A stretch of 32,000 nt of DNA. It comes from Haloferax volcanii DS2. Lineage in GTDB: Archaea; Halobacteriota; Halobacteria; Halobacteriales; Haloferacaceae. The notes beneath the pieces were generated by a model, which was not told where the DNA came from, did no database searches, and was given only the letters and a program-made list of their open reading frames with translations. A program made the position numbers and the translations under genes. Positions 19,348 to 32,000 of the stretch are shown here, in pieces (position 1 is the first letter of the stretch; each line of letters starts with the position of its first letter). The stretch spans positions 360,001-392,000 of the forward strand of contig NC_013964.1 of NCBI RefSeq assembly GCF_000025685.1, given 5' to 3'.

Positions 19348-21444
19348 ATGGATTCGCAAAGCAGCGCTGAGTCCGACAAGTGGATCAGCGACGACGAGTG
19401 GGAAGACGTATCGCCACAGACGCGCCGTCGTCTGCTTCGAAACGCGTTCGGTGCCACGGCCGGCGCCGCTGCGCTGGCTGGCTGTAGTCAGGGCGGGAAC
19501 GAGGATACGCCGACGCCGCTCGAGAACGAAGGCGGTGGCGGCGAAAGCACGACGACTGACGGCGATTCGACCAGCCAGTCGTCGGGTCGAACGCTCGACC
19601 ACATCATCTCGCTCGCGCCGACGAACGCCCGGTTCAATCCGTACGGCAACGCCGCGAACTTCTCGTTCCGGTGGTACTGGGCGATGTTCGACCAACTGGC
19701 CGTCCACGACAAGGTGTCGAACAAGACGAAAGGGATGGTCGTCGAGGACTGGGAGTACGCCGACAACGGACAGGTCGCGTGGAACATCCGCGACACCTAC
19801 ACGTGGCACAACGGCGACGACCTGACCGCGGAGGACGTGGCGACCCAGCTCAAAATCGGCAAGCTGATGCAGACCGTCCACAAGGGCTACGGCGCGCAAC
19901 CGCTGTACGAGAACGTGGAGACGACCGGGAAGTACGAACTCACGTTCGACCTGGTCGAGCCCGACATCAGCCGGGAGATATTCGAGTTCGGTCACATGAA
20001 ACGCCGCGCGTGGCTCTGGGCGCACCGAGACATCTGGGGGAAGTACGCCGAGATGTTCGACGACGCCACCACCGAATCGGAACGGACCTCCGCCCAGCAG
20101 GAGATGATGCAAGCGGTTCAACAGAACGTCTGGGACAACGCGAACGTCCCGGGTAACTCCGTCTGGGAGTTCGTCAGCGGAGAGGAGAACGTCGCGCACT
20201 TCGAACCCTACGACGACTACGTCAGCCCCTTCAGCGACGCCGAGTGGTCGAACGGCGAGATTACGGGCGACATGATAGACTACAGCCTCGACTGGCACCG
20301 CTACCCGAACCAGCAACAGCGGACCAAGGCGATGCAGGAGGGCGTCATCGACGTGAGCTACCCGCCGGAGTCGCAGTCCGCTCGTGACCGGCTCAAGGAG
20401 AACGGGTGGGGGCCGGCCGACAGCCTCTCCGAGGACCAGATTACGCCGCAGATGCGCAGCGGGGCGATGGGCGTCCTGCTCAACTGTCAGAGCGACATCA
20501 CCGGCGACCCGCGCGTCCGGAAGGCGATTCACCACATCGTCCCCCGGAAGCCGCTCGTCGAGTGGGTTCCGGACTACGGCACCTACTGGGTCGAAGACCG
20601 CATTCCGTCCGGCATCGGGCAGGACAAGGAAGTGCCATGGTTCGGCGGGAACTCGAACTGGCCGAGCGGCGACCTCGCGAAGCTCGAGCGGTACGCCCAC
20701 ACGGAAGACGACGTGGACGAACAGCGGGCGACCGAACTCCTCGAGGCCGCCGGCTTCTCGAAGTCGGGCAACCGCTGGAAGGACCCGAACGGGGAGAACG
20801 TCACCCTTCGGTTCTACACGGCGACGTCCGACGAGGAGCCGATGGCCCTACGGTTCGCACAGATCGCGAAGTCCTACCTGGACGACTTCGGTCTCCAGAC
20901 CGAAGTGACCGCACAGGAAGCGACCATCCGCGCCGGCAAGACCATCGAGTCCGGCGACTGGGAGTTACTGTTCGACAACTGGGGCGGTGCGAAGTCCGGC
21001 CCGCCGTTCCTCGGCTTCTCGAACTCCTTCAGAGTCCAGGAGTCGCTGTCCGGACAGCCGCTTCCGAGCAACGACAGCTGGGCGATGGACCGCGTCGTCG
21101 AGGTTCCGTACCCCATCGGGGACCCGGCCGGTGACCTCCAGGAAGTCGACGTCATCGACAAGCTCAACGAGCTCCGGACGCAGATGTCGGACGAAGAGCG
21201 CAGACAGAAGGTCGCGGAAGTCTCGTGGATATTCAACCAGTCGCTGCCGATGATGCTCATCAACGAGGAGGGCGGCACGGGCGGCTACTGGCTGAATCAC
21301 GACAACTGGGCGACGAAGCCCCCGAACGACAACCTGAACCCGGCGTACCGCTACGAGATCGTCGAGATCGGTCAGTACTCCTACTGCCAGTACATGGCCA
21401 AGATGGGAACCGAATACTTCCACCCGGCGGAGGGAGGCCAGTAA
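19348..21444 (+). CDS. ABC substrate-binding lipoprotein, family 5 (Opp/Dpp class), Tat signal; probable oligosaccharide (oligogalacturonide?) binder
   Basis: About 698 aa from ATG 19348 (the track starts at GTG 19345). Long acidic n-region, then TRRRLLRNAFGATAGAAALAGC (twin-Arg plus lipobox) and a Gly/Glu/Thr/Ser linker. Size and periplasmic-binding-protein-like composition fit family 5. TATATA at 19315-19320 lies 28-33 nt upstream. The substrate is inferred from context only. Confidence 0.8.
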   Translation: MDSQSSAESDKWISDDEWEDVSPQTRRRLLRNAFGATAGAAALAGCSQGGNEDTPTPLENEGGGGESTTTDGDSTSQSSGRTLDHIISLAPTNARFNPYGNAANFSFRWYWAMFDQLAVHDKVSNKTKGMVVEDWEYADNGQVAWNIRDTYTWHNGDDLTAEDVATQLKIGKLMQTVHKGYGAQPLYENVETTGKYELTFDLVEPDISREIFEFGHMKRRAWLWAHRDIWGKYAEMFDDATTESERTSAQQEMMQAVQQNVWDNANVPGNSVWEFVSGEENVAHFEPYDDYVSPFSDAEWSNGEITGDMIDYSLDWHRYPNQQQRTKAMQEGVIDVSYPPESQSARDRLKENGWGPADSLSEDQITPQMRSGAMGVLLNCQSDITGDPRVRKAIHHIVPRKPLVEWVPDYGTYWVEDRIPSGIGQDKEVPWFGGNSNWPSGDLAKLERYAHTEDDVDEQRATELLEAAGFSKSGNRWKDPNGENVTLRFYTATSDEEPMALRFAQIAKSYLDDFGLQTEVTAQEATIRAGKTIESGDWELLFDNWGGAKSGPPFLGFSNSFRVQESLSGQPLPSNDSWAMDRVVEVPYPIGDPAGDLQEVDVIDKLNELRTQMSDEERRQKVAEVSWIFNQSLPMMLINEEGGTGGYWLNHDNWATKPPNDNLNPAYRYEIVEIGQYSYCQYMAKMGTEYFHPAEGGQ

Positions 21445-21526
21445 CCGCGCCGAGCGCCGCCACCTGAACGAGAAACCGTCGTCTCACCGAGTCAGTCAGA
21501 ACGTATCAGCCATACGGTGAACTCCC

Positions 21527-21558
21527 CGTCCGGAGGCGCAACGCGCCGCCTCCGGACG
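21527..21558 (+). promoter_or_regulatory. intercistronic perfect stem-loop between the SBP and permease genes
   Basis: CGTCCGGAGGCG (21527-21538), an 8-nt loop CAACGCGC, then CGCCTCCGGACG (21547-21558). This is a 12-bp perfect GC-rich stem, 83 nt after the SBP stop and 94 nt before the permease ATG. Confidence 0.6.
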
Positions 21559-21651
21559 CGACGACGGCGAGGTCGGTTCGGTCGAGTGCGGACGAAAGTA
21601 GCCCTATTCATAATGATTAAGTACCCACATGAGAGGTAAGAACTAGCAAGG

Positions 21652-23778
21652 ATGGTCGAGAAAAATTACTACGTGCGCCGGATAGCGCAGGCCCTGATAA
21701 CGGTCTGGGCGGCGATCACGTTCTCGTTCGTGACGGTTCGGCTCATTCCCGGCGGGCCGATGGACTACATCGCCGCGCAGATCAGACAGCGGTCCGGAGG
21801 GGCGGTTTCGTCGACCCGCCTCAACCAGATGGTCGAGATGTACTCGAACATCAACCCGGACAAGCCGATGCTGCAGGCGTACGTCGAATACATCGTATCG
21901 GTCGCGCAACTGGACTTCGGACGGTCTATCTTCTACGCGGACCCGGTCTGGAACGTGCTCGGACCGGCAATCCCGTGGACGATGTTCGTCTCGCTTTTCG
22001 CCCTCGTCATCGGCACCATCATGGTGTTTCTCATCGGCGGCTTCCTCGCCGTCCACGAGGGCGACACCTGGGACGTGGTCGGGAGTTACTTCGTCATCTT
22101 CTCCGACGCCGTCCCGTACTACATCGTCGGGCTCGTACTGCTTTTCACGCTCGGATTCGGTACCGAGTTCTTCCCCAACGGGGGGCGGTACGACAACGCG
22201 CTCACGCCCGGGTTCAACATCGAGTTCATGGCCAGCGTGCTGCGACACGCGGCGCTGCCCATCATGTCGTTCGCGCTGACCTCGTGGGGCGGCCTCGAGT
22301 TCCGCGCGCACTGTACCCGCATCATCGGTGAGGACTACGTCGACGTGGCGGAACTCAGGGGACTGCCCGACAGCCGGATTCAACTGCGGTACATCGGTTG
22401 GAACTCGATGCTGCCGATGTACACCGGCCTCATGGCCGGCCTCGCCAGCCTGTTCGGCGGGTCGGTCATTATGGAGCAGATATTCCGCTACCGCGGCATG
22501 GGCTTCTACTTCTACGAAGCCACGATGGCGCGGGACTACACGACGGTCATGGCGGCAGTCATCCTGTTTACCATCGTCACCGTCATCGGCCTGCTCATCG
22601 CCGACTTCACCTACGGCTTCATCGACCCCCGCGCCGGGCACACCCAGCGCGAGTCCTACTCGCGGTCGTACCGCGAAACGCTCCAGCGGTTCGTCAACCG
22701 CCTGCGGGGCGGCGGCGCAGACGAGACCGAAACCATCGACGACCGCATCGAAGGGAACCGCATCTCGGCCAGCGGCGCGATGAGCTTCGACGTCGATAGC
22801 TCCGACTTCTCGCGCGGAGAGTACATCAGAGAGCGAATCGACCAGAGTCTCCTGACCCCGTTCCGCATCATCTGGACCTCGCCGCGGGCGCGGGTCGGCG
22901 CGATAATCCTCGGTATCTTCGGCTTCCTCGGGCTGTTCGGGCAGTTCCTCGTCCCCGAGGTCAGCCCGATGCAGGGGCCGATTCTCCTGCAACCGCTGGA
23001 GAACGTGCGCTACCCGCTCGGCACCGACGACATCGGGCGCGACCTCCTCGCACAGCAGGTGCTCGCGACCCGCCCGATGCTCATCATGATGCTGTCGGGC
23101 GCGGCGGTGACGCTCAGCCTGGCCATCCTTCTCGGCGTCACGGCCGGCTACCTCGGCGGCGTCATCGACAAGGTGCTCATGACGGTGACGGACGTGATGA
23201 TGAACATCCCCGGCCTGGCGCTGGTCATCGTCCTCGCCGTGATTCTCGAACCGAAGAGCCCGGTGTTCGTCGGGGTCGTGCTGGCCATCGACAACTGGCC
23301 ACGGTTGGCCCGACAGCTCCGCTCGCAGGTGCTCACTATCCGCAGTGAGTCCCACGTCGAGGCCTCGCGGGTGCTCGGACTGCCAACATCGAGCATCCTC
23401 TCGAAGAACGTCATGTCCCGGCTCATGCCGATGCTGACGATGGGGACTGTCGGCTCCATGCGGAACATCCTGATGGAGTCCGTCGGCCTGTACTTCATCG
23501 GCGTGCTGCCGTTCACGACGAGCAACTGGGGCGTCGTCCTCAACATCGCCCGCAACGGCGGCGCGCTGTCCGGCATGGACCGCTTCCACTGGCTGCTCGC
23601 GCCGACACTGTTCATCGTCACGATGACGTACGGCCTCCAGCTGTTCGCGCAGGGGACGGACCGACTGTTCAACCCCCGCCTCCGCGCGCGGCACGCGGCC
23701 ACCGTCTCGACCGACGACATGGAAGGCGGTCGCGGCGGCTCGGAAGGCGGCGACGGTGCCGCATCGGCCGCGGACTAA
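21652..23778 (+). CDS. fused ABC permease (DppB/OppB-like N-half plus DppC/OppC-like C-half)
   Basis: 708 aa. The N-half starts YVRRIAQALITVWAAITFSFVTVRLIPGGP and ends LIADFTYGFIDPRAGH (OppB-type termini). A hydrophilic linker of about 72 aa spans roughly 22641-22857. The C-half has GTDDIGRDLLAQQV and LGVTAGYLGGVIDKVLMTVTDVMMNIPGLALVIVL (OppC-type). Confidence 0.85.
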   Translation: MVEKNYYVRRIAQALITVWAAITFSFVTVRLIPGGPMDYIAAQIRQRSGGAVSSTRLNQMVEMYSNINPDKPMLQAYVEYIVSVAQLDFGRSIFYADPVWNVLGPAIPWTMFVSLFALVIGTIMVFLIGGFLAVHEGDTWDVVGSYFVIFSDAVPYYIVGLVLLFTLGFGTEFFPNGGRYDNALTPGFNIEFMASVLRHAALPIMSFALTSWGGLEFRAHCTRIIGEDYVDVAELRGLPDSRIQLRYIGWNSMLPMYTGLMAGLASLFGGSVIMEQIFRYRGMGFYFYEATMARDYTTVMAAVILFTIVTVIGLLIADFTYGFIDPRAGHTQRESYSRSYRETLQRFVNRLRGGGADETETIDDRIEGNRISASGAMSFDVDSSDFSRGEYIRERIDQSLLTPFRIIWTSPRARVGAIILGIFGFLGLFGQFLVPEVSPMQGPILLQPLENVRYPLGTDDIGRDLLAQQVLATRPMLIMMLSGAAVTLSLAILLGVTAGYLGGVIDKVLMTVTDVMMNIPGLALVIVLAVILEPKSPVFVGVVLAIDNWPRLARQLRSQVLTIRSESHVEASRVLGLPTSSILSKNVMSRLMPMLTMGTVGSMRNILMESVGLYFIGVLPFTTSNWGVVLNIARNGGALSGMDRFHWLLAPTLFIVTMTYGLQLFAQGTDRLFNPRLRARHAATVSTDDMEGGRGGSEGGDGAASAAD

Positions 23779-23783
23779 CCAAC

Positions 23784-23819
23784 CGGACCAGCCGGTCCGT
23801 TTCGCGTCGCTGCTTTTTT
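23784..23819 (+). terminator. candidate terminator after the fused permease gene
   Basis: Hairpin CGGACC-agcc-GGTCCG (23784-23799) followed by a T6 run at 23814-23819, 6-40 nt after the permease stop (23778). Confidence 0.45.
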
Positions 23820-23909
23820 CGATTATCTCGACCCGAGAACGGTCGTGCCACACTGTCTCAGGGAAAAGGTTAACACACGCGCTATCGACCTACGAAACGG
23901 ACTTCAACC

Positions 23910-24011
23910 ATGAAAGTGGAGAAAGAAGGAAATACGACGCGGTACCTGCTCGGCCTCGTGATACTCGTAATCCTGCTCATCGGGGTGTACTACGGATTCA
24001 CCATGATGTGA
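23910..24011 (+). CDS. possible 33-aa single-TM micro-protein
   Basis: ATG AAA GTG ... ATG ATG TGA translates to MKVEKEGNTTRYLLGLVILVILLIGVYYGFTMM. GC3 is fairly high in the hydrophobic part. Not in the ORF track (<60 aa). Its stop abuts the stop of the convergent 72-aa ORF. Weak evidence. Confidence 0.25.
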   Translation: MKVEKEGNTTRYLLGLVILVILLIGVYYGFTMM

Positions 24012-24230
24012 TCAGAACAGTCGGTACGCCCAGAGCAGTACCCGGAACGCGACGGCGACGAACACCAGCAATCCACCGATTATTCCGAACATTCCCGCCC
24101 AGACGCCGGTCTGAAGGGCGGCACCGAAGAGAATCAACAGCGCGCCGAGGAAAACCACCGTCGAGGTGACACCGCCGATTTTGGAGCGAACTGTCCACAG
24201 CACGTTCTGTCGCGTTTGCGCTTGCGCCAT
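24012..24230 (-). CDS. small hypothetical membrane protein (72 aa, 2 TM)
   Basis: Start assigned to ATG 24230 (MAQAQTRQNVLWTV...), with TATA-like CTTATAG (24255-24261) 25-31 nt upstream. Two hydrophobic helices and good GC3. The longer 158-aa track ORF upstream is compositionally non-coding. Confidence 0.5.
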   Translation of the reverse strand: MAQAQTRQNVLWTVRSKIGGVTSTVVFLGALLILFGAALQTGVWAGMFGIIGGLLVFVAVAFRVLLWAYRLF

Positions 24231-24445
24231 GTCAGCACGGACATCGCGGACGAACTTATAGTTTGCCGGTATCGGCAGCCGAACCGCCCGAAGACTCCGA
24301 TATCGACGCGCATGGACTGCGCTGTCGGAAAGTATTAAGTAGTATTGAACGTGATAGATTCCTACTACGGTCACATGTTGACGATAGGCACGCGTAACGG
24401 GCGGGGTCGCTCGCCCGCCGTACGAACCGACGAGAGGGACTGACC

Positions 24446-25507
24446 ATGGCGACGCAACACACCAAACGGAAGACGCGGGACGAGCCATCTGCCGAGCACA
24501 ACGTCTTAGAGATAACGAACGCGAGCGTCGCGTTCGCGATGGAGCGCGGGGACGCGCGGGTCCTCGACGACGTGTCGATAAATGTTCGCCGCGGCGAGGT
24601 GCTCGGCGTCGTCGGCGAGTCCGGCTCCGGCAAGTCGATGCTGGCGGACTCCATGCTCGACGCCATCGACTCCCCGGGGACGCTCACCGGCGACGTGGTG
24701 TTCAACCCGCCGGAGGGGGGCGAGCCCATCAAGGTCAACGAGCTGAGCAAAGAGGAGCTCCGTCGGTTCCGCTGGGAACGGGTCTCGATGGTGGTCCAAG
24801 GGGCCCTCGATTCGTTTAACCCGACGCTCAGCATCGGTGACCACTTCGTCGAGACGCTCCGAGCGCACGACTACGACATTCAGGAGGGGATGGAACGCGC
24901 CCGACAGCTCATCTCCGACGTACACCTCGAACCGGACCGCGTCCTCGACGCATACCCCCACGAGCTTTCGGGCGGGATGAAACAGCGCGCGCTCATCGCG
25001 CTGAGCCTCATCCTCGACCCCGACGTGCTCGTGATGGACGAGCCGACCGCCGCGCTCGACCTCCTGATGCAGCAGTCGATTCTGAAGCTCCTCTCGGAGC
25101 TGAAAGCCGAGTACGACCTCACCATCGTCATCGTGACGCACGACCTGAGCCACGTCGCGCGCATCTCCGACCGCCTCGCGGTGATGTACGCCTTCGAACT
25201 GCTGGAACTCGGCCCGGTGCAGGACATCGTCATGGACCCCGCCCACCCCTACACGCGGGAGCTCCTCAACTCGATACCCGACATCGACGCCGATCTCGAC
25301 GAGATGGCGTCCATCGAGGGGACGAGCCCGGACCCGTTGAACGTCCCGAAGGGCTGTTCGTACCACACCCGATGCCCGCTCGCCGACGAGCGGTGCCGGG
25401 CGACGAACCCGGACCTCATGGAGGTGTCCGACGACCACGGGGCCGCATGCTTCTACACGGACGAGGCCCGCGAGACGATTCCCCTCAAGAAGGAGGTCTC
25501 GAAATGA
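24446..25507 (+). CDS. ABC transporter ATP-binding protein (OppD/DppD-like)
   Basis: Walker A GESGSGKS, signature LSGGMKQR, Walker B VLVMDEPTAALD, and an Opp-type C-terminal Cys-rich extension (CSYHTRCPLADERC...AACFY). Confidence 0.9.
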   Translation: MATQHTKRKTRDEPSAEHNVLEITNASVAFAMERGDARVLDDVSINVRRGEVLGVVGESGSGKSMLADSMLDAIDSPGTLTGDVVFNPPEGGEPIKVNELSKEELRRFRWERVSMVVQGALDSFNPTLSIGDHFVETLRAHDYDIQEGMERARQLISDVHLEPDRVLDAYPHELSGGMKQRALIALSLILDPDVLVMDEPTAALDLLMQQSILKLLSELKAEYDLTIVIVTHDLSHVARISDRLAVMYAFELLELGPVQDIVMDPAHPYTRELLNSIPDIDADLDEMASIEGTSPDPLNVPKGCSYHTRCPLADERCRATNPDLMEVSDDHGAACFYTDEARETIPLKKEVSK

Positions 25508-26619
25508 GCGCCGACCCCCTGCTCCGCGTCGACGACCTGAGCGTCCACTTCGGCGGCAACCAAGGCATCCTCGACCGCTTCCTCGGTGACGACAAAGGCG
25601 TCGTCCGCGCCGTCGACAACGTCTCGCTCGACATCGGCGAGAACGACGTGGTCGCGCTCGTCGGCGAGTCCGGCTGCGGCAAGACGACGCTCGGAAAGGC
25701 CATGATCGGCCTCCAGCGCCCCACCTCGGGGACGGTCCGCTTCCGCGGACAGGACATCTGGAAGTCCGACCTCGAACCCGGCGACATCCCGTACAAGGAG
25801 ATTCGGAAGTCGCTCCAGATGGTCCACCAGGACGCCGGGAACTCGCTGGACCCCAACCGGACGATATTCAAGAACCTCAACCCGGCGCTGAAGAAGTGGC
25901 GGCCGGAACTCAACCTCGTCGAGCGCCGGGAGCTCGTCCACCAGATGCTCGACACGGTCGGGCTCACGCCCGCAGACGACTACGCCTCTCGGTACCCCCA
26001 CCAACTGAGCGGTGGGGAGGCCCAGCGGACCGTCATCGTCCGGTCGATGCTCCTCGAACCCGACCTCATCCTCGCCGACGAGGCCGTGAGCGCCCTCGAC
26101 GTGTCGCTGCGGGTGAACCTGATGGACCTCCTCCTCGAACTGCAGGAGATGTTCAGCACCTCGTTCGTTTTCATCTCGCACAACATGGCGAACGCCCGGT
26201 ACCTCGCCGGTCGCGCCGACGGCCGCATCGCCGTCATGTACCTCGGCCGCATCGTCGAAATCGGCCCGGCGGACGAGATTATCAAGAACCCCCAGCACCC
26301 GTACACCAAGAGCCTCCTGTGGGCGACCTCCGGTCTCTCGGAGATAAACGACCCCATCGAGACGCCGCCGGTCAGGAAAATCGACATCCCGGACCCGGAG
26401 AACCCGCCGAGCGGCTGTCGGTTCCACACCCGCTGTCCCGAGGCGCGGGAGTACTGCACGTCGAACACGCCCGACCTCTCCGGCATGAGCGGCCCGTCGG
26501 ACCGCCACGAGGCGGCCTGCTTCGACGCGCACGACAGAATCGACTACCGGAACAGCGAGCCAATCACCGACGACCTCGACATCGACGTCGCGGACGACGC
26601 GGAACAGCCGGCCGACTGA
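25504..26619 (+). CDS. ABC transporter ATP-binding protein (OppF/DppF-like)
   Basis: ATG 25504 overlaps the upstream stop (ATGA). Walker A GESGCGKTT, signature LSGGEAQR, Walker B LILADEAVSALD, and a C-terminal CRFHTRCPEAREYC...AACF motif. The 44 extra N-terminal codons in the track ORF overlap the previous gene out of frame. Confidence 0.9.
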   Translation: MSADPLLRVDDLSVHFGGNQGILDRFLGDDKGVVRAVDNVSLDIGENDVVALVGESGCGKTTLGKAMIGLQRPTSGTVRFRGQDIWKSDLEPGDIPYKEIRKSLQMVHQDAGNSLDPNRTIFKNLNPALKKWRPELNLVERRELVHQMLDTVGLTPADDYASRYPHQLSGGEAQRTVIVRSMLLEPDLILADEAVSALDVSLRVNLMDLLLELQEMFSTSFVFISHNMANARYLAGRADGRIAVMYLGRIVEIGPADEIIKNPQHPYTKSLLWATSGLSEINDPIETPPVRKIDIPDPENPPSGCRFHTRCPEAREYCTSNTPDLSGMSGPSDRHEAACFDAHDRIDYRNSEPITDDLDIDVADDAEQPAD

Positions 26620-26686
26620 AAGAGAAACCTCGATTCGGACCGTCGTTCAGACGCCGTCGCCAACACCGAAACCGGTACCGGCACCG

Positions 26687-26766
26687 ACACCTGTTTTCGC
26701 TCCCGCACTGACGCCCGTTTTCACTCCCGCACCGATTCCTGCGTTCACTCCCGAATTCACTCCGCG
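26687..26766. repeat. degenerate 24-nt tandem repeat (about 3.5 copies, core TTC(A/G)CTCCCG)
   Basis: Units are acacctgttttcgctcccgcactg (26687-26710), acgcccgttttcactcccgcaccg (26711-26734), attcctgcgttcactcccgaat (26735-26756) and tcactccgcg (26757-26766). Units 1 and 2 share 20/24 positions by hand alignment. The last unit contains the stop codon of the Gfo paralog-3 gene. Confidence 0.7.
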
Positions 26767-27875
26767 TCGCCCGCCGGGCCGAGGTCAGTCGGGAAGCCGT
26801 TGGGGACCGACGGCGGACGCTCGCACTGCGCCGAAAGTTCGACGTACGCGCCCTCCTCGGCGGACTCGCGGATGCCGTCCATCGCTTCGAGGACGTGGAA
26901 CCCGAGGTCGCCGCTGGTCCGGTGGTCCCAGTCGGAGTCGAGCGAGTACGCGAGGTCGACGAGGCCGAGACCGCGCTGTTGGCCGGGGTGGTCGCGCTCG
27001 ACGGAAATCTCGCGCCACTCGCCGCCGTCGTCGCTGAGGTGGACGCGGGGCGTCCCGTCGAACCGGTTGGGGTCGGTGACGCTCAGCGTCCCCTCGGTGC
27101 CGTATATCTCGAATCCCGGTAGTTCTGACCCCCACACGTCGAAGCTCGTCAGGAGCGTCCCCGTCGCGCCGCTTTCGAAGGTCACGACGGCCGTCTCGTG
27201 GGTCGGCACCGACACCGGAATCCGCTCGCCGCGGCGCGGTTCACTCGTTATCTCGCGCTCTGCGAACGGCGTGTTCGCGGTCCCGGCGACCGACCGAATC
27301 GGGCCGAGGAGCGTCACGAGCGACGTGAGATAGTACGGCCCCATGTCGAAAAGCGGACCGCCGCCTTCCGCGTAGAAGCCGTCGGGGTCCGGGTGCCAGT
27401 GCTCGTGGCCGTGGTTCGACCAGAACGCCGTCGCGCCGACGGGGTCGCCGATGCGGCCCTCGTCGATGAGGTCGCGACAGGTCTGGATTCCGGTGCCGAG
27501 AACGGTGTCGGGCGCGACGCCGACGGTCAGTCCGCGCTCGTCGGCGGTCTCCAGAATCGCCTCGCCTTCGGCCTTGGTCGCCGCGAGCGGCTTTTCGGTG
27601 TAGGCGTGCTTGCCCGCTCGGAGGGCAGCGGACACGAGGTCGCCGTGGGTGCCCGCCGGCGTGAGCACGACCGCCACGTCGATTACGGGGTCGGCGAGCA
27701 GGTCCTCCGTCGCGAGGACGCGAGGCACGCCGTACTCGTCCGCCTTCGCCTCCGCGCGGTCCGCGTCGAGGTCGGCGCAGGCGGCGATGTCGAGGGCATC
27801 GAAGCGGTTCCCCGCCTCGAAGTAGACATCGCTGATAGCTCCACAACCGATGATACCGAGAGTCACGCGCTCCAT
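26757..27875 (-). CDS. Gfo/Idh/MocA-family oxidoreductase (paralog 3)
   Basis: 372 aa. LGIIGCGAISDVY Rossmann motif, AGKHAYTEKPLA (EKP motif), and GGGPLFDMGPYYLTSLVTLLGP in the C-terminal domain. Confidence 0.85.
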   Translation of the reverse strand: MERVTLGIIGCGAISDVYFEAGNRFDALDIAACADLDADRAEAKADEYGVPRVLATEDLLADPVIDVAVVLTPAGTHGDLVSAALRAGKHAYTEKPLAATKAEGEAILETADERGLTVGVAPDTVLGTGIQTCRDLIDEGRIGDPVGATAFWSNHGHEHWHPDPDGFYAEGGGPLFDMGPYYLTSLVTLLGPIRSVAGTANTPFAEREITSEPRRGERIPVSVPTHETAVVTFESGATGTLLTSFDVWGSELPGFEIYGTEGTLSVTDPNRFDGTPRVHLSDDGGEWREISVERDHPGQQRGLGLVDLAYSLDSDWDHRTSGDLGFHVLEAMDGIRESAEEGAYVELSAQCERPPSVPNGFPTDLGPAGDAE

Positions 27876-27953
27876 ACCGGGGCGACGCGGGAGAGGCCCA
27901 AATAGCTGTTGCCGGGCGCGGGCGCGAAGGGGTCGTCGGTCAGGGAAGCGCGC

Positions 27954-28988
27954 TCAGTCGTCCGCGTCTTCGAGGTTGCCGAGGCCGCCGATAGACGACA
28001 CCGACACCCACTCGCCGCGGCTGTCCGATACCTCGGCGGCGAAGACGATGTCCAGTCCTTTTCTGGCCGCAGCGGGTGAGACCATCGGCGGTCGCCCCTC
28101 GGAAACGGCCGCGACGAAGTCGCGTATCTGGGCGACGTGCGGGCCGTCGGGGCGGGGTTCGGGGAGTTCAACGGGCTGTTGTTCCCCGTTCACTTCGAAC
28201 AGTTCGACGCCCGTCTCAGTGACACGAAGCGTCCCCTCGGTTCCGTTGAATTCGAGGCTGATGGGCTGTTGGGGCCGCGTCGCCGTCGTCGCCGACACCT
28301 GCCCGAGCGCGCCGCCCTCGAATCGGAGGGAGAGCGCGGCCGTGTCGGGGGCGTCGATGTCGTGGTACAGCGCGTCGCCGGTGCCCGCGACCCGTGACAC
28401 GTCGCCCGCGACCCACTGGAGCAGGTCGATGCCGTGGAGCGCCTGCGTGAACAAGACGCCGCCGTCGAGGTCCGCGCTCCCGTGCCACGAAGACACGTCG
28501 TAGTACGAGCGGTCGCGGTGCCACTTCACCCGCACGTCGGCGAACACGAGTCGTCCGAGCCGGCCATCGCGGACCATCTCGCGGGCGAACTGCATCGTGG
28601 GGAACAGCCGCCGTTGGAGGATACAGGCGAGGGTGACGCCCGCGTCGCGGCAGGCGGCGACCATGTCGTCGACACGGTCGGGCGTGATTTCCAGCGGCTT
28701 CTCGCAGAGCACGTCGATGCCGTCTGCCGCGGCGTCGACGACGATGTCGCGGTGGGCACCGTTGGGCGTGCAGACGCAGACGGCGTCGAGGTCGGCGTCG
28801 GCTAACAGGGCGGCGTGGTCGGTGTACGACGGACAGCCGTATGTCTCACCGAACGAACGAGCGGTCTCCGCGGTGTGGTCGGCGCAGCCGACGAGGTCCG
28901 CGCCGTCGACGGCGGCGAGCGCTTCGGCGTGGGACCGGCCCATGCTCGAACAGCCGACGATACCGACCCGAACCGGCGTCTCGGTCAT
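27954..28988 (-). CDS. Gfo/Idh/MocA-family oxidoreductase (paralog 4)
   Basis: 344 aa. VGIVGCSSMGRSH, IDVLCEKPLE (EKP motif), and DGGVLFTQALHGIDLLQWV. Confidence 0.85.
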   Translation of the reverse strand: MTETPVRVGIVGCSSMGRSHAEALAAVDGADLVGCADHTAETARSFGETYGCPSYTDHAALLADADLDAVCVCTPNGAHRDIVVDAAADGIDVLCEKPLEITPDRVDDMVAACRDAGVTLACILQRRLFPTMQFAREMVRDGRLGRLVFADVRVKWHRDRSYYDVSSWHGSADLDGGVLFTQALHGIDLLQWVAGDVSRVAGTGDALYHDIDAPDTAALSLRFEGGALGQVSATTATRPQQPISLEFNGTEGTLRVTETGVELFEVNGEQQPVELPEPRPDGPHVAQIRDFVAAVSEGRPPMVSPAAARKGLDIVFAAEVSDSRGEWVSVSSIGGLGNLEDADD

Positions 28989-29120
28989 CGGCGCTCACCG
29001 TCGGACGAGAGAGTGGCTGTGACTGTGACTGTAGGCGTCATCGATTCGAACGTCAGCGGGCGGCGTGATAAGCGTTTACGAGCGGGGGTCGGGGTCGCGC
29101 AGTCGTGCGGTCGCGCGGCC

Positions 29121-30389
29121 TCACTCGGGCGAGAAGCTCTCGGTGAGCGTCCGCCCGACGAGTCCGGCGGCGACGAACGCGAGGACGCTGGTGCAGACGA
29201 ACGCCGTGGCGTAGTCGAACCGGGTGGCGAGCACGCCGACGAGAAGCGGTCCGAGAACGCCGCCGAGACCGCGGGCGGTCGAGCGAAGTCCCATCAGTTC
29301 GGACTCGCGGTCGACCGGGGCCACGTCGGCGACGAAGGCGATAGTGCCCACGGTGAGCATGGAGAACGTCACCGCGTGGACGACGAAGGCGGTGCTGCTG
29401 ATACCGATGCGGGCGAGCTGCCCGTCGGGGACGAGCGCGAGCACGACGACGAGCGCCTGCACGCCGCTGCCGGCGAGTCCGCCCACGATGAGCTTCTTCC
29501 GGCCGATGCTGTCGCTCAGGCGACCGAAGCTGTACATCGAGACGACTCGGACCGCGGGACTGACCGCGAGCACGGCACCCATGACGACGTTCGAGAGCCC
29601 CACGTCGGCGACGAGGAACACCGGAACGACCGAGATGAAGCCCTTCTCGGTCATGTTCCGGAGGACGATACCGACGTACAGCCAGCCGAGTCCGGTCCGC
29701 TCGAACAGTTCCCGCCGCGCGCCGCCGGGGAGGAGTCGCCCGCGGACTTCCCCAAGGAGTCGACCCGTGGTCAGCGTCTCTTCCGACGGCGGCGTCGGGT
29801 CGGCGATGCGGAGCGTGAGGAGCGTCGCCACGAGGCCGAGGCCGACGACGACGAGATAGAGGTCGGTCGGCACGAGCAGGCCGACGAGATAGCCGACGAA
29901 CAGCCGACCGCTGATAGCCCCGCTAGAGCGGGCGCTACTGTAGAAACCGATGGAACGTCCGCGCTCCGACTCGCCGCCCGACTCGCTCACGATGGTGAGA
30001 ATCACCGACTGGAAGCCGGCGGTGAACACCGCGAAGAGGCCACGACAGGCGATTTGGAGCGGGACCGAGGCGGTCACGGTCAGCGGGGCGATGGCGAGCG
30101 TCGAGAGGAACGCGGTCCCGATGAGTATCGCTCGCCGCCGACCCGTGATGTCGGCGATTGCGCCCCAGACCGGGGCGAACACGAACAGTCCGAAGGAGAA
30201 CGCCGCGTACGCGAGGCTCACCGCGAACGGCGACCCCTGTTCTCCGATGTAGAGCGCCATCGCCGTGCCGAAGAGCGACCCACACGCGACGCGAGAGATA
30301 CCGATGAGCGCGAGTGCGCTCCGCTGCCCTCGACTCGCTGGTCGAGCCTGCTGATTGACTACCACTACGACTCGGTGTGACACTACCAC
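29121..30389 (-). CDS. MFS transporter
   Basis: About 12 hydrophobic segments. MFS motif A appears in both halves (GAIADITGRRRAILIG; GRLSDSIGRKKLIVGG). No in-frame ATG before TM1, so a GTG start is needed: 30389 is the longest, and 30365 fits better 27-32 nt downstream of the TATA-like element at 30392-30397. Confidence 0.8.
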   Translation of the reverse strand: MVVSHRVVVVVNQQARPASRGQRSALALIGISRVACGSLFGTAMALYIGEQGSPFAVSLAYAAFSFGLFVFAPVWGAIADITGRRRAILIGTAFLSTLAIAPLTVTASVPLQIACRGLFAVFTAGFQSVILTIVSESGGESERGRSIGFYSSARSSGAISGRLFVGYLVGLLVPTDLYLVVVGLGLVATLLTLRIADPTPPSEETLTTGRLLGEVRGRLLPGGARRELFERTGLGWLYVGIVLRNMTEKGFISVVPVFLVADVGLSNVVMGAVLAVSPAVRVVSMYSFGRLSDSIGRKKLIVGGLAGSGVQALVVVLALVPDGQLARIGISSTAFVVHAVTFSMLTVGTIAFVADVAPVDRESELMGLRSTARGLGGVLGPLLVGVLATRFDYATAFVCTSVLAFVAAGLVGRTLTESFSPE

Positions 30390-30455
30390 CCAATAAAGAT
30401 TGGCGAGCCGGAAGGCGATGCGCCGAGGACGGCGGCGCGAGACTCGATGCGACCG

Positions 30456-31343
30456 TCAGGTCGACGGGCCGGCGCGGGCGATGGAGAACTCCGTGAGTCC
30501 GTGTCGCTCGGCGCACGTCCGGTCGCCGTCGGCGACGGCGAGAAGATACGCTTCGAGGTCGTCCGCGTCGGTCTCGCGGGCGTCGAGGTCGATATCGTCG
30601 GGGACGGCCGCGAGCGTGTCCGCGTCGCCCGAGAGTTTCACCACCGGAACGATGGGATGGCCGGCGGGCGTCCCCTGTCCCGTGACGTGGAGGACGAGGT
30701 GCGCGCCCGCGGCGGCGAGGCCGGTCGCGGCCTCCTCGACCCGAGAGGGCGCGTCGAGCAGCGTCACCGCGCCGGCGGCGGCATCGGCAGCGTCCGTTTC
30801 ATCGACTCGTTGGCCGTACGCCGCGACTCCCGTGACCGGCGCGTTGCCGAGGAATCCCGTCGCCGCGTCGAATCCACGGGCCGCCGCCTCCGTTCCGATG
30901 CGCGTCGCCCTCGCGGGGCGGCCCGCCGCGTCGAGCAGTCGGTCGGCGTGCCGTCTGGTCGAGTCCGCGAGGTCGTCGACGACGACGCCGACCGTGAGGT
31001 CACCGAGGGTCGCCGTCTGTTCGTCGGCTGTCGCGGTCGCCCCGTCCGTCCCCTGAGCGGCGGCCGACTCCCGGAGGTCGGCGACGGCGGCCGTGCCGCG
31101 GTCGACGCAAGCGTCGGTCCCCCCGGCGTCCTGTATCGTGAGTTCGCGGACTGGAAGCCCGCGTTCTTCGACCGCCGCGGCGACGACGTCGCTCCGGACC
31201 GTCTCGCAGCCGAGGCCGACGACGACCGTACCCGCGACGTTCGGGTTCCCGGCGAGGCCGACGAGCGTCCGTTCGGTCGGGTCGGCGGTGGCCCGCGAAC
31301 GAGTCTGGGGTGACTCGGCGGCGGTCCGGGTGTGGGTTCCGGG
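30456..31343 (-). pseudogene. UxaA/GarD-family-like ORF without a start codon (possible pseudogene, or 3' part of a recoded SAF-UxaA fusion)
   Basis: My hand translation of the minus strand from 31343 gives PGTHTRTAAESPQTRSRATADPTERTLVGLAGNPNVAGTVVVGLGCETV... and runs into the track ORF MTLLDAPSRVEEAATGLAAAGAHLVLHVTGQGTPAGHPIVPVVKLSGD... The GNPNV..VVVGLGCE and VTGQGTP...PVVK motifs are UxaA/GarD-like. GC3 is high. There is no ATG, GTG or TTG in frame for 192 codons (31343-30768). The frame equals that of the upstream SAF ORF, separated only by TGA at 31344-31346. Confidence 0.5.
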
Positions 31344-31652
31344 TCATCGCTCCACCTCCGCCGCCACGTCGCCGCGGCCGCGGGTGCTCTCGCAATTGTG
31401 CGTGTGGACCCACTCACCGGCCGCGACAGCCGCCGTGGTCCGCCCGATGACCTCACCGTACTTGCGGACCGTCTCGCCGGCCGGCAGCGGGTCGAGGGCG
31501 AACTTGTGGCCGAACGGAACGTCGTCCGCGAGCGTCACCGTCCGGTCTCCGTCGCGGACCTCGCGCCCGTCGTCGAGGTCTCCGAGCGCCGTCGCCACGC
31601 TGTCGCCGTCGGCCAGCACGAGGGCGGCCCCGTCGAGGACGCGGCCCTTCAT
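31344..31652 (-). CDS. SAF-domain protein (UxaA/altronate-galactarate dehydratase N-terminal/small-subunit type)
   Basis: 102 aa from ATG 31652, which overlaps the upstream stop (ATGA). Sequence is MKGRVLDGAALVLADGDSVATALGDL...VPFGHKFALDPLPAGETVRKYGEVIGRTTAAVAAGEWVHTHN. The GHKFA and VHTHN motifs are typical of the UxaA SAF domain. Confidence 0.75.
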   Translation of the reverse strand: MKGRVLDGAALVLADGDSVATALGDLDDGREVRDGDRTVTLADDVPFGHKFALDPLPAGETVRKYGEVIGRTTAAVAAGEWVHTHNCESTRGRGDVAAEVER

Positions 31653-32000
31653 TTGCCCCGCACCTCCGCGAGTTCGCGCGGGTGGACCTCCGTGATGGCG
31701 AACTCCTCCATCCGGCGCGTCTCGGCCCCGGTTCGCTTCCCGTCGGCGACGGCGAGCACCTCGTCGAAGACGCGCTCGCCCGCCTCGGAAATCGTCGCGT
31801 CGCCCTCGACCACCGCCCCGGCGTTCACGTCCATGTTCGACCGCATGCGCTCCCACGTCCGGGGATTTCCCGTGACCTTCACCACGGGCGCGACGGGGTT
31901 GCCGGTGGTGCTCCCGCGCCCGGTGGTGAAGACGATAATCTGCGCGCCGCCGGCGACCTTGCCGACGACGCTCTCCACGTCGTAGCCCGGCGTGTCCATC
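31649..32000 (-). CDS. UxaA/GarD-family dehydratase, C-terminal part (gene continues beyond the window edge)
   Basis: C-terminal sequence DTPGYDVESVVGKVAGGAQIIVFTTGRGSTTGNPVAPVVKVTGNPRTWERM...DVNAG matches the conserved C-terminal domain of altronate/galactarate dehydratases. The N-terminus is outside the window. Confidence 0.8.
   Translation of the reverse strand, partial: MDTPGYDVESVVGKVAGGAQIIVFTTGRGSTTGNPVAPVVKVTGNPRTWERMRSNMDVNAGAVVEGDATISEAGERVFDEVLAVADGKRTGAETRRMEEFAITEVHPRELAEVRGK

Follow-up and report, generated by a model that had tools for sequence, protein, structure and literature searches.

A start-less UxaA-like reading frame in line with a SAF-domain gene is very probably a large2 pseudogene with two internal deletions

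In the window analyzed here (the whole stretch of DNA, 32,000 nucleotides long), an ORF encoding a SAF domain and a long start-less frame with recognizable UxaA/GarD sequence lie one behind the other in the same frame, separated by a single TGA. The question raised by this arrangement is whether the two parts are joined into one enzyme by recoding, are an artefact of assembly, include a shortened but functional gene, or represent an intact gene followed by the remains of another one. Here we show that positions 30456-31347 of the minus strand are, with high confidence, a pseudogene, in which large2, the last of the three genes of a large1-SAF-large2 operon of the UxaA/GarD family conserved in haloarchaea, survives as a remnant with two internal deletions at short direct repeats.

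All reading frames of the SAF ORF and of the remnant are on the minus strand, and the coordinates given in the first-pass annotation all proved right. As the first-pass annotation stated, the SAF ORF (31652..31344) ends in a TGA at 31346-31344, its terminal codons being GAG GTG GAG CGA TGA. Beyond this stop, the SAF frame continues as PGTHTRTAAESPQTRSRATADPTERTLVGLAGNPNVAGTVVVGLGCE... with no further stop for 295 codons, until the TGA at 30458-30456. The UxaA/GarD character assigned to this open frame was confirmed by two Pfam matches, to GD_AH_second (E = 1.9e-15, limited to profile positions 59-135 of 136) and to GD_AH_C (E = 2.3e-21, profile positions 113-240 of 242). The reported lack of a start also held: the ORF listing contains no ATG, GTG or TTG in the SAF frame across 192 codons after the TGA, and the sole start-bearing ORF of the remnant frame, 30456..30767, begins with the GTG at 30767 and encodes 103 aa. 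An ATG in another frame does overlap the SAF stop (ATGA, with the ATG at 31347-31345); the frame that it opens reads MTRNPHPDRRRVTPDSFAGHRRPDRTDARRPRR... / MTRNPHPDRRRVTPDSFAGHRRPDRTDARRP... and reaches a stop at 31002-31000, after 115 codons. Between positions 28815 and 31985, where the GC content is 70-73%, long spurious ORFs (100-520 aa) are present in most frames of both strands, including one of 521 aa that runs antisense to the gene of the MFS transporter. Within the window, open frames by themselves carry little weight.

A protein search with the remnant retrieved full-length relatives of 387-404 aa, the closest ones being P0001 of Haloferax sp. Atlit-6N (389 aa, 80% identity) and P0002 of H. 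gibbonsii (387 aa, 77% identity), with the 42-residue gap counted in both identity figures. Over the codons common to all three sequences, only 27 differ in amino acid from either ortholog. P0002 is named 'putative hydro-lyase (homolog to altronate dehydratase)' in its source, and the other ortholog is labeled 'UxaA family hydrolase'. The ortholog loci (L006 and L007) share their neighbors with the locus of the window (L002-L005), in the common gene order GH4, luciferase-like, DUF8074, ThuA, CBM9, large1 (396 aa), SAF (103 aa), large2 (387-389 aa), MFS, Gfo/Idh/MocA. In the Haloferax operon, the large1-SAF and SAF-large2 junctions are both 4-nt ATGA overlaps.

In the orthologs, large2 starts at the same ATG of the ATGA overlap, which there opens intact 389-aa and 387-aa genes, and the encoded proteins begin MTRNPHPDPRPVTTDSFAGYRRPDG...; the ATG frame of the window matches them over the first 24 residues and diverges exactly at the first alignment gap. 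The window thus retains large2 codons 1 to 22-24 in the ATG frame (MTRNPHPDRRRVTPDSFAGHRRPD), including the conserved motif F-x-G-Y/H-R-R-P-D. The first-pass annotation had dismissed this frame as arginine-rich junk, which is accurate for the 91 later, out-of-frame codons, but not for the first 22-24, which are a conserved ortholog N-terminus. The TGA of the SAF gene and the ATGA overlap are kept in every ortholog examined, with large2 intact in the other frame. Hence the TGA is the normal stop of the SAF gene rather than a nonsense mutation, as had been considered, and the comparison of related haloarchaea that was suggested to assess the conservation of the frame break yields a divided answer: the TGA and the ATGA are conserved, and the frame break is not shared by the orthologs. 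Large2 is also intact in the locus of Haloferax sp. Q22, which is among the genome-collection matches listed for P0001. Three Haloferax plasmids (two from H. gibbonsii and one from H. alexandrinus) gave megablast matches that are each split into three pieces, and each of these plasmids is annotated with three 'UxaA family hydrolase' genes at the locus.

The features of the locus are the following:

31649..32000, minus strand: 3' end of large1 (its last 116 codons), which encodes a UxaA-family large subunit, comes first in the operon and continues past the end of the window
31344..31652, minus strand: intact gene for the SAF-domain small subunit (102 aa; match to Pfam SAF, E = 1.8e-6), ATGA-coupled to the upstream large1
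31344..31347, minus strand: ATGA overlap of the SAF stop TGA with the probable ancestral large2 start (ATG at 31347-31345), identical in sequence in Haloferax sp. Atlit-6N and H. gibbonsii
31282..31347, minus strand: probable pseudogene segment A, native large2 codons 1-22 in the ATG frame (MTRNPHPDRRRVTPDSFAGHRR), aligning with the ortholog N-terminus MTRNPHPDPRPVTTDSFAGYRRPD
31276..31281, minus strand: junction of deletion 1, with 152 nt absent compared to the orthologs (alignment A1, columns 424-575)
30949..31280, minus strand: probable pseudogene segment B, large2 codons shifted into the SAF frame (PTERTLVGLAGNPNVAGTVVVGLGCE ... DDLADSTRRH), Pfam GD_AH_second positions 59-135
30945..30949, minus strand: junction of deletion 2, with 126 nt absent compared to the orthologs (alignment A1, columns 908-1033)
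30456..30948, minus strand: probable pseudogene segment C, with the C-terminal codons of large2 (ADRLLDAAGRPARATR ... FSIARAGPST) down to the native TGA at 30458-30456, Pfam GD_AH_C positions 113-240
31000..31347, minus strand: frame opened by the ATG today, 115 codons (24 native and 91 out-of-frame, arginine-rich), followed by a stop

Two more native codons (P and D) after segment A sit within the junction repeat. The part of large1 that is inside the window matches Pfam GD_AH_C (E = 2.2e-37), and the full gene encodes 396 aa in L002-L007. The SAF orthologs are 103 aa in length, with a stop and an overlap identical to those of the window. Around position 31365/31366 of the minus strand, the SAF gene of the window has one GGC codon fewer than the orthologs, inside a GGC/GGCGGCGG repeat, so that its C-terminal tail reads AAEVER compared to AAAEVER in the ortholog; this one-codon deletion is probably harmless slippage, and in other respects the gene looks constrained, with a dN/dS of 0.13.

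The state of large2 was examined in a three-way DNA alignment (A1) of the window with Haloferax sp. Atlit-6N and H. gibbonsii, which contains two clean gaps, both in the window only, between flanking blocks that are 92-97% identical. Deletion 1, of 152 nt, is located about 66-72 nt downstream of the ATG, with the window junction at approximately 31281/31280; it removes about 51 conserved codons and shifts the rest of large2 into the SAF frame. In the orthologs, an imperfect direct repeat of 12 nt, CGTCGACCAGAC ... CGCCGAGCAGAC, borders the deleted stretch on both sides; the window has a single hybrid copy of it, CGCCGACCCGAC. Deletion 2, of 126 nt (42 conserved codons), is in frame, with the window junction at approximately 30949/30948 and a CGCC microhomology at the breakpoint. 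Thus, short direct repeats are found at both breakpoints, and the deletions probably arose through slippage or a microhomology-mediated process.

The length of deletion 1 accounts for the appearance of a single frame interrupted by one TGA. Because 152 = 3x50 + 2 and the ATG frame is one base off the SAF frame, the codons downstream of the deletion fall in the SAF frame, and the remnant frame lacks a start codon because the real start is in the other frame, upstream of deletion 1. The fact that the remnant shares the frame of SAF is uninformative in itself, this being one of the two possible outcomes of a frame-shifting deletion at an ATGA overlap. In the most plausible scenario, the ancestral operon would have consisted of large1, SAF and large2, with each ATG overlapping the preceding stop (ATGA); a 152-nt deletion between direct repeats after large2 codon 22-24 would have moved the later codons into the SAF frame; and the other, in-frame deletion of 126 nt would have eliminated 42 conserved codons. 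If the gene is still translated, the product of translational coupling would be the 115-codon ATG frame.

To characterize the lost segments, 21 intact haloarchaeal homologs were aligned with the reconstructed window protein. Deletion 1 eliminates residues that are invariant in 21 of the 21 homologs, namely, G28, R30, LVLPSVICS (L34-S42, including C41), PHDHGC (P60-C65), Q67, G69, D71 and Q74, and with them the VICS and HDHGCGQ cysteine motifs. Deletion 2 likewise removes P187, L188, A199, G200, R202, A206, G207, E209, R210, H214 and P215, all invariant in the same set. In E. coli GarD (PDB 6U7L), the positions aligned to C41 and C65 (P0001 numbering) are cysteines as well; of the three positions aligned to GarD cysteines, C41, C65 and C98, the remnant keeps only C98 (GLGCE). 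Cysteines conserved across the UxaA/GarD superfamily have been proposed as the likely iron ligands and were tested by Cys-to-Ser substitution (Watanabe et al., PMC6336799). C41 and C65 probably correspond to these positions.

The GD_AH_second (PF04295) match points in the same direction, being incomplete: the remnant covers profile positions 59-135 of 136 compared to 1-135 in the intact P0001. The GD_AH_C (PF20629) match of the remnant, at positions 113-240 of 242, has the same extent as that of the intact large2 orthologs (112-240), but the 42 ortholog-conserved residues just upstream of it are deleted. No uninterrupted start-bearing ORF covers the domains, the ATG and the domains being in different frames. 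With an incomplete second domain, two of the three conserved cysteines lost and no in-frame start, the remnant does not appear to qualify as a functional large subunit, and we infer that the function of large2 has been lost.

We estimated selection on the remnant by the NG86 method, taking the remnant value from alignment A1. The dN/dS of the remnant compared to the Atlit-6N ortholog is 0.33 (295 codons, dS = 0.11), and that between the two intact large2 orthologs is 0.32, so that no extra decay since inactivation, as a trace of relaxed selection, was detectable in the remnant. The neighboring genes have lower dN/dS values than large2 (0.07-0.20; 0.14 for large1 and 0.13 for SAF compared to the Atlit-6N ortholog), and large2 appears to be a relatively fast-evolving gene everywhere. 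Because the window copy carries no measurable extra decay, the deletions are suggested to be recent relative to the species divergence, and the preserved GC3 and the open frame fit this dating. The unchanged dN/dS fits a recent event, and by itself it is no proof of lost function.

The same value can be read in favor of a remnant that is expressed as a shortened protein with a residual or new function, from a non-canonical or internal start, for which the ATA at 31136 or the GTG at 30767 would be the candidates. The frame is indeed uninterrupted, its dN/dS is not above that of the intact orthologs, and one gene caller produced a 226-aa model from it (P0003, MQDAGG..., L002:10517-11197). We nevertheless consider this very unlikely, given the 192 codons devoid of a canonical start and the parts that such a protein would miss, that is, the rest of the second domain and the 42-residue segment; a recent deletion would account for the unchanged dN/dS just as well, since the measured divergence mostly predates it. 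The public gene call P0003 begins at an ATA (window positions 31134-31136, minus strand), a codon position that is occupied by isoleucine in the orthologs, and it appears to be an attempted rescue of a start-less ORF, in other words, a mis-annotated pseudogene fragment.

Another reading, which we regard as highly improbable, is that the remnant has been co-opted: low-level read-through of the TGA, or a shift after the ATG, might fuse SAF to the shortened, cysteine-poor large2, and this large2 part might assist large1 in, for example, a regulatory or a scaffolding role. If true, a deletion would by chance have joined the parts of a split enzyme again.

Recoding in the stricter sense, whereby read-through of the SAF TGA or a frameshift after the ATG would yield a fused or restored enzyme of the UxaA type, has in its favor that the remnant shares the SAF frame over 295 open codons and that the region of the fused E. 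coli GarD aligned with large2 comes immediately after the SAF domain (query residue 3 corresponds to GarD residue 110). The first-pass annotation accordingly proposed that read-through would restore the SAF-catalytic order. The order is indeed that of fused GarD, but a full-length enzyme would not be restored: any read-through or shifted product would lack the 51 and 42 residues that are conserved in 21 of 21 intact homologs, including two cysteines. Furthermore, the in-frame arrangement is not conserved; the orthologs encode SAF and an intact large2 separately, in different frames, and keep the TGA/ATGA with no need for recoding, and the frame match in the window is a 1-in-2 outcome of a frame-shifting deletion. 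A scan of the whole window against Rfam, which covers described families, returned no family at the gathering score and thus no known recoding element. Taken together, these observations make recoding extremely improbable.

Finally, short repeats at a GC content of about 70-73% can collapse in some assemblies, but an assembly or sequencing artefact that conceals an intact large2 or a simple indel has next to no chance of being the explanation, given the recurrence of both deletions across the assemblies described below. The stretch 30400-31700 (1301 nt) is 100% identical in the NCBI assembly GCA_033550185.1 (L002) and in two Logan run assemblies (L003 and L005); a third Logan run assembly (L004) is identical over its 1102 nt, both deletion junctions included; and a JGI contig of 437,942 nt (L001), 99.5% identical over the same stretch, carries both deletions. 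The contig carrying L003 was found in at least 20 samples, and the exact SAF protein is indexed in 92 collection blocks. A 32-mer across junction 1 is absent from the metagenome collection. All the deletion-bearing assemblies may descend from one isolate.

Over 10.7 kb (window positions 21345-32000), L001 departs from the window by 32 mismatches and 37 gap openings, and its genes are in several cases of a different length; in particular, L001 has a single ABC ATPase gene of 746 aa in place of the two genes (371 and 353 aa) of the other assemblies. In Haloterrigena, the counterpart of this ATPase is likewise encoded by one gene (about 732 aa). The differences in L001 are most likely indel errors of that assembly rather than biology.

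We therefore return to the large2 pseudogene as the preferred reading. The attributes of a deletion pseudogene were all found at the locus: intact syntenic orthologs, missing conserved segments, a disrupted frame and the same state repeated in independent assemblies. Among the options put forward originally, that of a pseudogene stands; its proposed cause, a nonsense mutation or small indel near 31340-31347, does not, the lesions being the 152-nt and 126-nt deletions downstream. The deletions appear to be lineage-specific, on a replicon that we take to be pHV3 of Haloferax volcanii. The pseudogene is of an already known kind, an ordinary deletion pseudogene, and its importance beyond annotation is little. 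The region is best annotated as one UxaA-family large-subunit pseudogene that starts at 31347 and has two internal deletions; annotation as a protein of 226 or 103 aa, or as a candidate for recoding, should be avoided. When a frame-shifting deletion hits an ATGA-coupled gene, the result can imitate an in-frame stop between domains, which makes the locus a useful negative control for recoding screens. The strain, moreover, naturally lacks an intact third gene of this conserved UxaA-family operon and, as such a knock-out, could aid tests of the two paralogous large subunits.

Haloferax and Haloterrigena share the conserved three-gene layout, large1 (~396 aa)-SAF (~103 aa)-large2 (~373-404 aa), in which adjacent genes overlap by 4 nt. 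The operon loci are window 30456-32000 (minus strand), L006:4506-7170, L007:4506-7164, L012:2665-5287, L013:2665-5335 and L014:662-3371. Large1 and large2 are paralogous large subunits that are 32% identical. Large1 matches GD_AH_C strongly and in full (327 bits) and is devoid of the three GarD-like cysteines (LPTSVASS / PHQMGANQ / VVEFGTED), whereas large2 has the cysteines (VICS / HDHGCGQ / GLGCE) and a Pfam match to the second half of the C-terminal domain only. Judging from these sequence features, the two subunits look complementary, and the operon may encode a heteromeric sugar-acid dehydratase in which they share one SAF subunit. A literature search returned no characterization of the three-gene operon, which appears to be uncharacterized, and no paper on the present locus, the usable source being general background on the UxaA/GarD superfamily (PMC6336799).

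In comparison with its closest counterparts, the window copy resembles the intact orthologs P0001 and P0002 in its syntenic position, ATGA-coupled start and flanking DNA (92-97% identical), and differs from them by the loss of 152 nt and 126 nt, the frame shift after codon 22-24 and the lack of a start codon for most of its sequence. The superfamily of the locus is UxaA/GarD (COG2721), represented here in a split form with a separate SAF subunit. SuyAB (sulfolactate sulfo-lyase) is a heteromeric member of this superfamily (PMC6336799). Similarly to SuyAB, the present operon has a separate small SAF gene beside a gene with GD_AH_second and GD_AH_C, but unlike SuyAB, it contains one SAF gene between two paralogous large-subunit genes. 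The domain order, SAF, second, C-terminal, is also that of E. coli GarD (PDB 6U7L) and UxaA, and the alignment of large2 with GarD residues 110-243 includes its F-x-G-Y-R-x-x-D-G motif and its cysteines. The relationship to fused GarD is nevertheless distant, with a TIGR03248 score of 54 bits compared to the cut-off of 731. The present genes are split, whereas those of GarD and UxaA are fused, and the window copy of large2 is probably a non-functional remnant.
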